Positions 54,933 through 57,510 of a DNA stretch of 64,000 nt are shown here, in pieces. Below the pieces are notes generated by a model. That model saw only the letters and a list, made by a program, of their open reading frames with translations, was not told the origin of the DNA and ran no database searches. How positions within the stretch are numbered: position 1 is the first letter of the stretch; every line of letters begins with the position of its first letter. This DNA comes from Candidatus Nealsonbacteria bacterium (GTDB lineage: Bacteria > Patescibacteriota > Minisyncoccia > Minisyncoccales > MHMH01): assembly GCA_016188865.1 (NCBI GenBank), contig JACPGX010000001.1:13197-77196 (forward strand), written 5' to 3'. A program made the translations under genes and the position numbers.

Positions 54933-55586
54933 ATGGAAAAAAATAACAAAAAAAGATGGGTTGAATTGTGGCAACGTGCCGGAAGAAACGGGGGAGAAGA
55001 CGCCGGAGATTGCGCCGTTGTGTACGCCCACCTTATAAGTCACCATAGGGGGAAATATGAAAAATCGCCTCGCCTCTATCACACAATAGACCACATAGAT
55101 CGGTGCCTTGAGGAATTTGACGAAGTTAAGGGCCTTTTAACGGAGCCGAACGCAGTTGAAATGGCAATTTGGTTTCATGATTTTTTCTACGATACTTATA
55201 GAAAAGATAACGAAAAAAGAAGTGCTGGGGTAGCGAAAGACATTCTCAAAGCAGCTTCGTTGCCCCATGCCTTTGGTAAACGCGTTACCGAACTAATTCT
55301 CGTGACCAAACACGATATTCCGCCTGCAGATTTTGATGCGCGGATTATAGCCGACATAGACCTGGCTTCGCTGGGTTATTCAGAAAAAATATTCGATGAG
55401 AATACGGCCAAGATTCGCAAAGAATACGACTGGGTGCCAAAAGAAATATTCAATAAGGGAAGAATAAAAATCTTGAAAGCGTTTCTTGATCGCCCAACCA
55501 TTTATTTAACGCAGTTCTTTCGCGATAAGTACGAAGCGCAAGCTCGCAAAAACCTCGCCCGAGCCATCGCAAAACTATTAGAATGA
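54933..55586 (+). CDS. HD-like metal-dependent phosphohydrolase family protein (uncharacterised)
   Basis: 217 aa; ..YHTIDHIDRC.. and ..AIWFHDFFYD.. (H..HD). Confidence 0.5.
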   Translation: MEKNNKKRWVELWQRAGRNGGEDAGDCAVVYAHLISHHRGKYEKSPRLYHTIDHIDRCLEEFDEVKGLLTEPNAVEMAIWFHDFFYDTYRKDNEKRSAGVAKDILKAASLPHAFGKRVTELILVTKHDIPPADFDARIIADIDLASLGYSEKIFDENTAKIRKEYDWVPKEIFNKGRIKILKAFLDRPTIYLTQFFRDKYEAQARKNLARAIAKLLE

Positions 55587-55614
55587 AACCCTTCGGCAAG
55601 CTCAAGGTAAACAA

Positions 55615-55649
55615 AAAGGCCTAGAGATAAATCTCTGGGCCTTTCTTTT
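55615..55649 (+). terminator. intrinsic terminator after 54933-55586
   Basis: aaaggcctagagat/atctctgggccttt stem + TCTTTT. Confidence 0.65.
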
Positions 55650-55696
55650 CACAAACGCAGGAGTTAATGATTGATGTCGTAAACCAATCATAAAAG

Positions 55697-55727
55697 AATC
55701 CGTGGAACTTCCGCGGATTATTTTTTT
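55697..55727 (+). terminator. second tandem plus-strand terminator
   Basis: aatccgtgg/ccgcggatt stem + A TTTTTTT. Confidence 0.6.
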
Positions 55728-55776
55728 GAAGGATAAAACCAGAGTTGACACCATTTTTACCATCGGCCGCAGAAAT

Positions 55777-55804
55777 AAATACACCGGTTGAACCGGTGTA
55801 TTTT
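55777..55804. terminator. palindromic AAATAC..GTATTT hairpin downstream of the tRNA-Lys locus
   Basis: aaatacaccggtt g aaccggtgtattt, 13-bp stem. Confidence 0.55.
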
Positions 55805-55837
55805 GCAATGGGCCTGCCGGGACTCGAACCCGGAACC

Positions 55838-55889
55838 ATCACCTTAAAAGGTTTATCCGCCTTTGGCGGAGTGTTGCTCCCTGCCTGCC
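55838..55889 (-). repeat. 52-nt direct repeat, copy 1 (intact anticodon loop CTTTTAA)
   Basis: 51/52 identical to 56250-56301. Confidence 0.85.
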
Positions 55890-55913
55890 CGACAGGCGGG
55901 ACTACTAAGATTA

Positions 55914-55986
55914 TGGGTCTGGCGCGAATCGAACGCGCAACCTCTTCCTTAAAAGGGAATTGCTCTACCAATTGAGCTACAGACCC
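55914..55986 (-). tRNA. tRNA-Lys(UUU)
   Basis: GGGTCTG-TA-GCTC-AATTGGTA-GAGC-A-ATTCC-CTTTTAA-GGAAG-AGGTT-GCGCG-TTCGATT-CGCGC-CAGACCC-A. Confidence 0.9.
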
Positions 55987-55997
55987 ATGATACTAAT

Positions 55998-56246
55998 TTA
56001 TTTTTGTATAAACTTCTTTAAAAACTCTCTGCCTATTCCGCTTTTTAAATACTTTTCTCGTTTTCTGGCCACATCGCTATTTTCTACTTTTTCGCAATAT
56101 ATTAAATCAAATGGACCACGATTTTTTGTAGAAGGAGTTGCTTTACTGCCATGATTATGTTGATTTATTCTACGGGTTAAATTATTGGTGATGCCAGTAT
56201 AACGCTTTTTATCTTTTTTACTTTTAATTACATAAACAAAATACAT
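55998..56246 (-). CDS. small GIY-YIG (URI-domain) nuclease
   Basis: 82 aa; YFVYVIKS..KRYTGITNNLTRRINQH..; ATG 5 nt after AAGGTGAT, which is the 3' anticodon-stem of the interrupted tRNA. Confidence 0.8.
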   Translation of the reverse strand: MYFVYVIKSKKDKKRYTGITNNLTRRINQHNHGSKATPSTKNRGPFDLIYCEKVENSDVARKREKYLKSGIGREFLKKFIQK

Positions 56247-56249
56247 AAT

Positions 56250-56301
56250 ATCACCTTAAAGGGTTTATCCGCCTTTGGCGGAGTGTTGCTCCCTGCCTGC
56301 C
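56250..56301 (-). repeat. 52-nt direct repeat, copy 2 (loop mutated to CCTTTAA)
   Basis: Single difference from copy 1 falls on U33 of the anticodon loop. Confidence 0.85.
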
Positions 56302-56369
56302 GGCAGACAAGGTACCAATTGACCCGCCTATCGGCGGGCAGGGCTACAGGCCCCTATACAAAAAACTTT

Positions 56370-57479
56370 TTACAACCCTTCTTCTTTTAATCTTTCTAAT
56401 AACTCTTTTTGCTTTTTTGTCAACTTCTTGGGAGTTTTTATAATCAACTCTACATACATATCGCCTCTGCCATAACCCTGAAAATGCGGGATGCCTTTTC
56501 CGGAAATTCGCAAAATTTTGCCGGATTCTGCCCCTTCGGGAACCTTCAATAAAATCTTGGTACCCTCTAGAGCCGGCACTTCAACCTCATCACCTAAACC
56601 AGCTTGAGAAAAAGAAATTTCGCGGCTTAAATAAAGGTCATCACCCTTTCTCTCAAAAATCGTGTGCTTTTTAACAAAAATTCTCACATAAAGGTCGCCG
56701 GCTTTTCCGCCTTTTCTGCCTGCCTCTCCCCCGCCTCCGACTTTAATTACTTGATTTGTATCAACGCCGGCCGGAATAGAAATCTTTATTTTATCATCGC
56801 CCTTTACTCTGCCTTCCCCCTTGCAAACATTGCAAGGCTTTGCCGGCCTATAGCCCTCACCGCCGCACTCTGGGCATACTGCATAGCGGGTAACCGTTCC
56901 AAACATAGTTTTCCTTATTTGCTGGACTTCGCCTGTGCCGCGGCAAGAAAAACACTCGTTAACTGAAGTGCCGGGTTCAGCTCCTTTGCCCTGGCAGCGA
57001 CTGCAAACAACTTGTTTATATAAAGAGATTTCTTCTTTTCTTTCGTTAAGCGTTGCTTCCAGGGGAATCTCCATTTCAATTTCTATATCTTTGCCCCTTT
57101 TTAAATCTTTTTTTCCGCCGCTACGCATGCCAAACCCAAACATTTCTCCGAAAATATCACCCAAATCCATTTCGTCAAAATCTTCGCCGAATCTATCTTT
57201 CATAGATTCGAAATCAAAGCCAAATCCCTGGCCGCCTTGACCGGGAAAATCCCAACCCGGAGCTTGTCCGCCTTCAAAAACTCTGCCAAATTGGTCATAC
57301 TGGTTTCTTTTTTCAGAATCAGAAAGCACCCTATAAGCCTCGCTTACTTCTTTAAACTTTTCGGCATCGCCGCCCTTATCGGGGTGATACTGATGAGCTA
57401 ATTTCCTGTAGGCTCTCTTTATTTCTTCTTGGTTGGCGTTTTTTTGAATGCCTAAAATTTGATAATAGTCTTTTGCCAT
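56370..57479 (-). CDS. dnaJ: chaperone DnaJ
   Basis: [15 protein letters not shown]-domain, G/F region, four CxxCxGxG repeats; ORF-track upstream extension rejected. Confidence 0.9.
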
Positions 57480-57510
57480 TGTGATATTAGGAGGTCCGAC
57501 CTCAAAATAT

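Follow-up and report, generated by a model that had tools for sequence, protein, structure and literature searches.

A tRNA-Lys(UUU) gene split by hairpins and by a cassette that carries a minimal GIY-YIG nuclease together with an intact tRNA-Lys(UUU) was characterized in a 64,000-nucleotide (nt) stretch of contig JACPGX010000001.1 from Candidatus Nealsonbacteria bacterium (hereafter the window; positions refer to this whole stretch). The locus spans 56353-55809 and is read 5' to 3' on the minus strand. We consider it probable that a selfish GIY-YIG cassette of the homing type resides there, in the tRNA-Lys(UUU) gene usually located after dnaJ. By comparison with homologous loci, the locus is one member of a large family of nuclease elements living in the tRNA genes of several bacterial phyla, a family that is apparently undescribed.

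The element begins 16 nt past the stop codon of dnaJ (57599-56370, minus strand), a conserved upstream neighbour that in turn follows dnaK (59403-57511). The 5' part of the outer tRNA-Lys(UUU), comprising tRNA nt 1-44, occupies 56353-56250 and reads GGGCCTG TA GC - h1 - TC AATTGGTA - h2 - GAGC A ACAC - h3 - CC CTTTAA GGTGA T, where h1, h2 and h3 are hairpin insertions. Hairpin h1 (CCTGCCCGCCGATAGGCGGG, 20 nt, 56342-56323) lies in the D stem between tRNA positions 11 and 12 (11|12), h2 (CCTTGTCTGCCGGCAGGCAGG, 21 nt, 56312-56292) at the junction of D loop and D stem (21|22) and h3 (TCCGCCAAAGGCGGATAAA, 19 nt, 56282-56264) on the 5' side of the anticodon stem (30|31). Three nucleotides, ATT, separate this fragment from the nuclease open reading frame (ORF; 56246-55998, 82 amino acids (aa)). 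Its ATG is preceded at a distance of 3 nt by AAGGTGAT, a Shine-Dalgarno-like sequence formed by the 3' strand of the anticodon stem of the dead copy. The inner, intact tRNA-Lys(UUU) at 55987-55913, called by ARAGORN and scored at 71.9 bits by Rfam, begins 10 nt after the ORF. It is followed by a 12-nt spacer, by a second palindrome (CCCGCCTGTCGGGCAGGCAGG, 55900-55880) that is predicted to pair with h2, and by the outer 3' part at 55837-55809, which reads GGTT CCGGG TTCGAGT CCCGG CAGGCCC A and comprises variable loop, T arm, 3' acceptor strand and discriminator. An inverted-repeat search identified a perfect 13-bp hairpin at 55803-55777, past the outer 3' end, that probably terminates the whole unit, although it went uncalled in the consensus terminator scan on account of its weak T run. 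No minus-strand consensus promoter was found by the promoter scan between dnaJ and the element.

The cassette is flanked by a direct repeat of 52 nt with 51/52 identities. The upstream copy (R1, 56301-56250) consists of the right half of h2, tRNA nt 22-44 and h3, and the downstream copy (R2, 55889-55838) contains the second h3 at 55870-55852. The sole difference, CCCTTTAA versus CCTTTTAA, changes U33 to C in the upstream copy, leaving an anticodon loop of CCTTTAA upstream and the normal CTTTTAA downstream. Between the repeats lies a block of 360 nt (56249-55890, or 412 nt measured from repeat to repeat) that holds the ORF and the inner tRNA-Lys(UUU). The block may be described as having entered at 44|45 with a 52-nt duplication, at 21|22 in the middle of the palindrome, or between the h3 copies at 30|31, and these three descriptions are equivalent permutations of one sequence.

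Neither ARAGORN nor the Rfam tRNA model called the outer tRNA, and deletion of the block did not change this, because its sequence is broken by three clean hairpin insertions (20 nt at 11|12, 21 nt at 21|22 and 19 nt at 30|31), to which the dots in the D arm of the first-pass annotation allude. As a contiguous cloverleaf it fails the tRNA model and was called only once the hairpins were removed. Deletion of the three hairpins and the block resulted in a 73-nt sequence that ARAGORN called as tRNA-Lys(ttt) with a perfect cloverleaf and that was 72/73 identical to the intact, functional tRNA-Lys of the related locus L008. The outer acceptor halves, GGGCCTG (56353-56347) and CAGGCCC (55816-55810, with the discriminator A at 55809), are still complementary to each other though unlike those of the inner tRNA, which represents a different allele (acceptor GGGTCTG; anticodon stem ATTCC/GGAAG; T stem GCGCG). 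The outer tRNA occupies the native site and ends at a hairpin resembling the terminator of the unit. Judged by this repair, the outer halves belong to one disrupted tRNA-Lys at the native dnaJ-tRNA-Lys position, far beyond what chance would give. The resident gene survives only as two hairpin-bearing halves, and the inner tRNA-Lys(UUU) must supply the tRNA of the cell.

The first-pass annotation had assigned the two acceptor halves to one cloverleaf, broken after nt 44 by 360 nt that hold an 82-aa GIY-YIG gene and an inner tRNA-Lys(UUU). Its coordinates and counts were reproduced here, the cloverleaf emerged from the repair, and the 52-nt repeat with U33 as the single difference was recovered by the repeat search. 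Its worry that the halves might pair only fortuitously is dismissed by the 72/73 match. ARAGORN, which it had proposed to run with and without the cassette, called the inner tRNA as anticipated but did not call the outer one upon removal of the block alone; the hairpins had to be removed as well. Its interpretation is largely correct in outline, with the nuclease as a putative driver of the insertion, but it covers neither the conservation of the GC hairpins, nor the wider family on many tRNA types, nor the age of the cassette in sister lineages.

In order to place the locus among related genomes, a DnaJ protein scan with one genome per species was performed, which returned 80 loci, and the 29 closest were inspected. 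An intact same-strand tRNA-Lys(UUU) directly follows dnaJ, without a GIY-YIG gene, in 26 of the 29, so that the empty sites sought by the first-pass annotation do exist. The remaining three comprise a truncated locus, one with tRNA-Lys elsewhere and one (L032) with a distant homologue in inverted orientation. Because the tRNA-Lys after dnaJ is uninterrupted in these 26 loci, dnaJ-tRNA-Lys is the ancestral state. In L032 (GTDB metagenome-assembled genome (MAG) CAZRVG010000001) the GIY-YIG homologue (40% identity) and a tRNA-Lys lie 3' of dnaJ, both on the strand opposite to it.

Close homologues of the ORF (74-89% identical) all occupy the dnaJ-tRNA-Lys site. The homologous site is accordingly polymorphic for presence and absence, being filled in the window, in L001-L009 and in L170 and empty in 26/29 relatives. 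The filled sites take several forms. In L008 and L009 the dnaJ stop codon overlaps the start of the ORF, and the ORF is followed by an intact tRNA with neither fragments nor hairpins. L001 has a 5' fragment with three hairpin inserts at the positions seen in the window, then the ORF and an intact tRNA, and L172 has a 5' fragment bearing the canonical palindrome, the ORF and an intact tRNA. In L170 the order is 5' fragment, ORF and inner tRNA, after which the contig ends. L002-L007 share the order 5' fragment, ORF, intact tRNA and 3' fragment and derive from at least 5 samples and different assemblers. Over the 66 nt that run from GCAACAC in R2 to the end of the T arm, the window and the 3' fragment of L002 do not differ. 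Since the nested architecture recurs in the independent assemblies L002-L007, it is not an assembly artefact, and the earlier concern over a chimera of two strains is thereby dismissed. A tRNA-Lys locus with a 5' fragment bearing the family palindrome but without an ORF was found at L023:3650-3830 (GTDB MAG CAYZNK010000002), where the intact tRNA lies between the inverted repeats CCCTAACACTTAAGTGT and ACTTAAGTGTTAGGG; this locus may be a remnant after loss of the ORF. At L171:760-960 a degenerate tRNA-like fragment with AT-rich hairpin inserts was observed upstream of a palindrome-bearing tRNA-Lys fragment.

Movement of the cassette was evaluated by comparing synonymous differences to the window in the last 84 codons of dnaJ with those in the ORF. 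The values for dnaJ and ORF were 0.61 and 0.54 in L008, 0.60 and 0.57 in L002, and 0.70 and 0.68 in L001, and because they agree, the cassette was co-inherited with dnaJ in these lineages. With a synonymous divergence (dS) of about 1-2, the cassette in the three sister lineages is old and under purifying selection, and not a fresh hit. In L170 the synonymous difference was 0.88 in dnaJ (49/56 sites) versus 0.41 in the ORF (19/46; Fisher P=9e-7), and the ORF is 88% identical to that of the window at the nucleotide level versus 71% for the adjacent end of dnaJ. The inner tRNAs of L170 and the window are identical at 40/41 positions, whereas the outer 5' fragment of L170 belongs to a different allele, its acceptor reading GCCCCCA and its anticodon-stem strand ATTC in place of GGGCCTG and ACAC. 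Because the ORF and tRNA of L170 are closer to those of the window than is the flanking dnaJ, the common ancestor of the two cassettes (ORF and inner tRNA) is more recent than that of their host genomes. This points to horizontal movement of the cassette, consisting of ORF and inner tRNA, between genomes and into the same site with two different resident alleles. The incongruence of L170 is the best direct support for the earlier proposal that the cassette brings its own replacement tRNA with the same anticodon.

A metagenome scan with alignment of ORF homologues was used to define the wider family and yielded 80 loci. A tRNA gene was present within 300 nt in 36/80 (binomial P about 1e-25, if 5% are expected), almost always on the same strand and usually either 2-40 nt 3' of the ORF or overlapping its last 9-50 nt. 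At least ten tRNA types are involved (Arg, Leu, Lys, Glu, Thr, Pro, Gly, His, Ile, Asn and Asp). In the tRNA-linked loci a 5' fragment of the same tRNA precedes the ORF and ends anywhere from position 21 to 74. This fragment carries a 20-nt palindrome, CCTGCCTGCCGGCAGGCAGG (hereafter PAL), or a near variant of it in 26 loci and in 3 more on truncated contigs. The usual family form is a partial copy with the palindrome, the ORF and an intact copy, and not a nested gene as in the window. A mirror form was observed in L168, with the intact tRNA, the ORF and a 3' fragment that has PAL in its T arm. Full-length tRNA-Arg copies inactivated by PAL alone lie beside an intact copy at L157:1850-1923 (9|10) and L136:1395-1485 (39|40), the inactivated copy of L136 being upstream. 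L154 and L165 contain tandem arrays of a unit composed of a PAL-bearing tRNA 5' fragment and the ORF. In a neighbour-joining tree of the ORFs the tRNA/PAL loci formed one clade with subclades tracking tRNA type. Two further genomes have the architecture with exact PAL, an uncultured Dokdonia (Bacteroidota, L174) at tRNA-Arg and a member of Wolfebacteria (L175) at tRNA-Asn. Loci of the candidate phyla radiation (CPR) and of Bacteroidota thus have PAL in common at 20/20 positions, with proteins that are about 50% identical.

The window h2 is a PAL variant at the commonest family position (21-24), and the second palindrome is PAL-like. PAL-type inserts are clean and lie in or next to loops, at raw tRNA positions 9|10, 15|16, 21-24, 32|33, 39|40, 55|56 and 64|65; beyond 3/40 sites that lie in repeats, no target-site duplications were found around PAL. 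The inserts measure 8-70 nt and share the termini CCYGCC...GGCRGG, and nested or tandem forms occur. PAL variants in L112 and L122 keep the 6-bp stem via changes on both sides. In 436 kb of control CPR loci PAL occurred once, in the tRNA-Lys fragment of L023 that lacks an ORF, and the window has no further copy; 3/7 of the all-GC hairpins in the window are at the GIY-YIG/tRNA-Lys locus. Between the window and L002, h1 is identical at 19/20 and h3 at 19/19 positions (in both h3 copies), and h3 is also 19/19 identical in L170. Because they are conserved while the surrounding linkers cannot be aligned, h1 and h3 are under constraint and not decaying junk. The GC hairpins are conserved, family-specific palindromes and not incidental decay, and the PAL-family hairpins are integral to the element. 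The 5' copy of L002 has lost h2.

The position of PAL within the fragments was also considered. The 5' fragment in the window is cut by its three hairpins into pieces of at most 14 nt. Over the family, the ratio of the longest segment to the fragment was 0.59 versus 0.64 +/- 0.02 expected with an 8-nt detection limit (P about 0.005, with relatedness ignored). A strong signal that PAL bisects the duplicated fragment had been obtained against a naive null of 0.74, and it shrank to a modest one once the detection limit was built in. Mid-fragment placement thus gives a weak hint that PAL may serve to break homology between dead and live copies. The folding energies of 35 inserts were equal for sense and antisense and gave no signal favouring RNA over DNA. 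In IMG/VR, exact PAL was observed at 42 sites in 35 viral-contig stretches (L176-L210), several of the copies being nested in other palindromes and one contig having six. A family GIY-YIG gene, including those detectable by hidden Markov model, was near 1/42 of these sites, and two lay in tRNA-like sequence. The possibility that PAL always accompanies the nuclease was therefore rejected.

An exact look-up of the 82-aa protein gave no hit, whereas a homology search recovered it as P0001 from Ca. Nealsonbacteria, a lineage of the CPR/Patescibacteria. It matched Pfam PF01541 (GIY-YIG) over residues 1-69 with E=1e-18 and 67.7 bits, against a cut-off of 22.6. A phmmer search of PDB returned two UPF0213 structures, 1zg2 (BH0048, E=8e-6) and 1ywl (EF2693, E=6e-4), both of which sit in the bacterial Slx1-like stand-alone cluster of Dunin-Horkawicz et al. 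2006 (PMC1564403). The protein is a member of the GIY-YIG superfamily with the single minimal domain (~80-100 aa) of UPF0213/Slx1-like proteins; the C-terminal DNA-binding module of I-TevI/Seg-type homing endonucleases is absent, leaving the catalytic domain only. TIGR01453 scored 20.5 bits against a cut-off of 56, and homing-endonuclease profiles of PHROGs matched weakly (E about 1e-3). The catalytic-type residues Y5, Y16, G18, R26, H30 and E64 are invariant in 36 homologues, and comparison of the window ORF with those of L001, L002 and L008 gave a ratio of nonsynonymous to synonymous substitution rates (dN/dS) of 0.05-0.11 at a dS of about 1-2. The protein is consequently functional and long kept under purifying selection, and it looks active. 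Clustered at 50% identity, the family amounts to 455 clusters when E is limited to 1e-10 and to 5368 when it is limited to 1e-3, and its members are annotated only as 'GIY-YIG nuclease family protein'. Among the hits P0121-P0269 many predicted members are 100-130 aa long with a match starting at residue 25-40. Gene callers may extend the ORF upstream into the stop-free tRNA fragment and palindrome, which would give the 25-40 extra N-terminal residues.

The other 36 loci of the scan have neither tRNA nor PAL and form a sister clade in which an 86-aa ORF is enclosed by 12-15-bp inverted repeats of the form (A/T)(T/C)CCCGTTAGAGA ... TCTCTAACGGG(G/A)T, whose left and right variants covary. The units measure about 290 bp and were found in L090-L109, L115-L117, L126, L145, L153 and others, with near-identical ORFs sitting in different flanks. 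In L115, L116 and L108 the unit lies exactly at a host start codon, in the arrangement ...ATGA - unit - GA..., in which 'GA' appears to be a 2-nt duplication; the ATG of the host is thereby restored and overlaps the stop codon of the ORF. The ORFs of L094 and L100 are 97% identical and occupy sites of one host sequence that are about 25 nt from each other. ORF-less solo hairpins built of the inverted repeats of this clade were observed in L101, L110 and L163. Cuts by GIY-YIG enzymes have a 2-nt stagger (PMC2330249). The units of the sister clade, lying in different flanks with a 2-nt duplication that matches this stagger, support the view that the family as a whole is mobile. The regenerated start codons show, at the level of sequence, a theme shared with the tRNA clade, namely that the element restores the host function it displaces.

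If the locus is a homing-type cassette, the nuclease would nick or cut cassette-free tRNA genes and repair would copy the cassette, with the tRNA-derived flanks serving as homology arms, making the nuclease the putative driver of insertion. As the stretch separating dnaJ from the element has no consensus promoter, transcription of the unit would start upstream, at the dnaK-dnaJ or tRNA promoter, and continue as far as the hairpin at 55803-55777. The ORF would be translated from AAGGTGAT, and RNase P/Z would release the inner tRNA. Such release had been listed in the first-pass annotation as an alternative; it is compatible with a cassette and does not compete with it. By interrupting homology between dead and live copies, the hairpins may prevent deletion through recombination or detrimental gene conversion. 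They may instead abolish the sites of the nuclease in the dead copies, or the nuclease may recognise them.

Several points weigh against this interpretation. To our knowledge, homing GIY-YIG enzymes need a separate DNA-binding domain, and the 82-aa protein consists of the catalytic domain only. The intact inner tRNA should still be a target for a nuclease specific for tRNA genes, which leaves self-immunity unexplained. Conservation of h1 and h3 amid unalignable linkers is not predicted if the outer pieces are purely dead remnants, and at the 42 viral sites exact PAL adjoins a family GIY-YIG gene only once. Co-inheritance with dnaJ in L001, L002 and L008, at a dS of about 1-2 and a dN/dS of about 0.1, would fit a host-useful gene as well as a parasite. 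A broader proposal, to which we give limited credence, is that a minimal GIY-YIG domain together with conserved palindromes or inverted repeats constitutes a new class of very small autonomous mobile element. Such an element would target hairpin-forming DNA (tRNA genes and gene starts) and repair the damage by bringing along, or duplicating, whatever part of the host gene it displaces, and the hairpin with its host-derived segment might be a recognition or guide module for a nuclease that lacks its own DNA-binding domain.

A rival reading is that the hairpin-laden outer pieces form a functional RNA or DNA module and are not debris, either a structured 5' leader controlling or stabilising the nuclease mRNA or a recognition, guide-like module of constant hairpins and tRNA-derived variable segments. 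We regard this as rather doubtful, though it can coexist with a mobile element. It would account for h1 and h3 being retained where linkers are unalignable and the synonymous difference of the ORF is 0.4-0.6, for the 20/20 identity of PAL between CPR and Bacteroidota with proteins only about 50% identical, for the two-sided changes that keep the 6-bp stem in L112 and L122, and for outer acceptor halves that remain complementary though differing from the inner tRNA. The predicted fold of the 545-nt transcript was also better than that of shuffled sequences (z=-5.9), with the inner cloverleaf, the outer acceptor stem and T arm, and a long PAL/PAL' stem (h2 with the second palindrome) enclosing the ORF and inner tRNA. 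However, hairpin stability is the same on sense and antisense with nothing favouring RNA over DNA, L008 has ORF and tRNA without fragments or hairpins, L002 has a 5' copy without h2, and both the position of PAL and the fragment length vary widely. That no mobile element is involved, and that a local tandem duplication of tRNA-Lys decayed with a housekeeping UPF0213 nuclease gene between the copies by chance, fits poorly and is improbable. UPF0213/Slx1-like proteins are indeed widespread single-domain proteins with proposed repair roles (PMC1564403), and vertical co-inheritance in three lineages agrees with such a role, but recurrence of one palindrome on 10 or more types of tRNA, the predominance of empty sites among relatives, the incongruence of cassette and flank in L170 and the inverted-repeat-bounded copies of the sister clade in different contexts would all be left unexplained.

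Two further explanations start from features that are common at tRNA genes, and both are very improbable here. Self-splicing group I introns are common in tRNA genes of Patescibacteria (PMC13011429) and one is present elsewhere in the window, which invites the reading that the block is such an intron in tRNA-Lys with a homing endonuclease gene. Searches with Rfam at E up to 10 on 55000-57500, and at gathering score on the whole window, returned only the inner tRNA at the locus and no other known RNA family, RF00028 (Intron_gpI) included; the flanks of the ORF are tRNA-derived duplicates and short hairpins without an intron core, and the block holds a complete tRNA. Repeats at tRNA genes are likewise typical of both assembly artefacts of two strains and integrase-type islands with att repeats. 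The same architecture in the independent assemblies L002-L007 and L170 speaks against an artefact. As for an island, there is no integrase, the GIY-YIG gene is the only ORF between the repeats homologous to a known protein family, the block is 412 nt, and the repeat spans internal tRNA nt 22-44 and hairpins, not the 3' end.

The closest known system is SegB of phages T4 and T6, a free-standing GIY-YIG homing endonuclease in a tRNA gene cluster. As described in PMC2330249 and PMC13096335, SegB cleaves within tRNA gene sequences, drives their preferential inheritance and promotes recombination-dependent tandem amplification of units of tRNA and segB. In both systems a GIY-YIG gene lies among or next to tRNA genes, and the tandem amplification parallels the arrays of PAL-bearing tRNA 5' fragment and ORF and the partial tRNA duplications found here. 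SegB is nevertheless a phage protein with a DNA-binding C-terminal part, whereas the window protein is a catalytic domain of 82 aa from the UPF0213/Slx1-like cluster and is chromosomal in CPR and Bacteroidota. A split host tRNA and a conserved palindrome, as in the window element, are likewise not known from SegB loci. The window element thus resembles SegB in outline but is not a member of the SegB family. With the UPF0213/Slx1-like proteins 1zg2 and 1ywl the window protein has sequence similarity and minimal single-domain architecture in common. The Slx1-like stand-alone cluster has been read as vertically inherited repair or recombination nucleases, and tRNA association, partial duplications, palindromes and mobility are not described there (PMC1564403). 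The tRNA group I introns of Patescibacteria, with or without homing endonuclease genes (PMC13011429), come from the same phylum and also represent selfish DNA that interrupts tRNA genes and is missed by tRNA finders; they differ in that the window element has no ribozyme and that its host is rescued at the DNA level, through another copy of the gene, where introns rely on splicing. A free-standing nuclease gene between host-gene halves, together with a rescue device, is likewise known from fractured genes that contain a homing endonuclease gene and split inteins (PMC2677866); the device is protein trans-splicing there and a duplicate or imported tRNA gene in the window.

With respect to insertion sequences (IS) and miniature inverted-repeat transposable elements, no known transposase is present, PAL inserts lack target duplications, and the sister clade has 12-15-bp inverted repeats with an apparent 2-nt duplication in three loci. 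On its sequence, the window element is neither an integrase island nor a group I intron and does not appear to belong to a known IS family. Small GC-rich hairpins cleanly inserted into genes and into each other in AT-rich genomes are familiar from the GC clusters of fungal (including yeast) mitochondria, Rickettsia palindromic elements and repetitive extragenic palindromic (REP) elements, and some such GC-rich palindromic elements co-occur with free-standing endonuclease genes. Compared by description, the PAL sequence and its link to tRNA fragments beside a GIY-YIG gene set the present element apart from these. In agreement with the first-pass annotation, which knew of no such arrangement in bacteria, no published description of a tRNA-nested minimal GIY-YIG/palindrome element was found in the full-text literature searched, although this is not proof that the element is undescribed.

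Two other features of the window were observed. At 1754-709 (minus strand), between the 16S rRNA gene (3455-2048) and tRNA-Ile (470-398), lie a LAGLIDADG-like ORF (1754-1317) and the only RF00028 group I intron match in the window (1151-709, 74.6 bits), which holds a 99-aa ORF. Just 3' of the tRNA-Lys locus, the minus strand at 55499-55463 matched the Na+ riboswitch aptamer RF03071 below threshold (24.8 bits against a gathering score of 40.5, E=0.023).

Genes for tRNA are essential, and spare copies of any one of them are probably few or absent in genomes as tiny as these. A selfish nuclease gene residing inside a tRNA gene by means of a spare copy would represent a new way to occupy essential, conserved and highly transcribed DNA without an intron or an intein, and the split tRNA copies that the family leaves are invisible to tRNA finders. 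If a 20-nt palindrome does indeed help to make a nuclease of 80 aa specific for a site or structure, this enzyme would be among the smallest targeting nucleases known.

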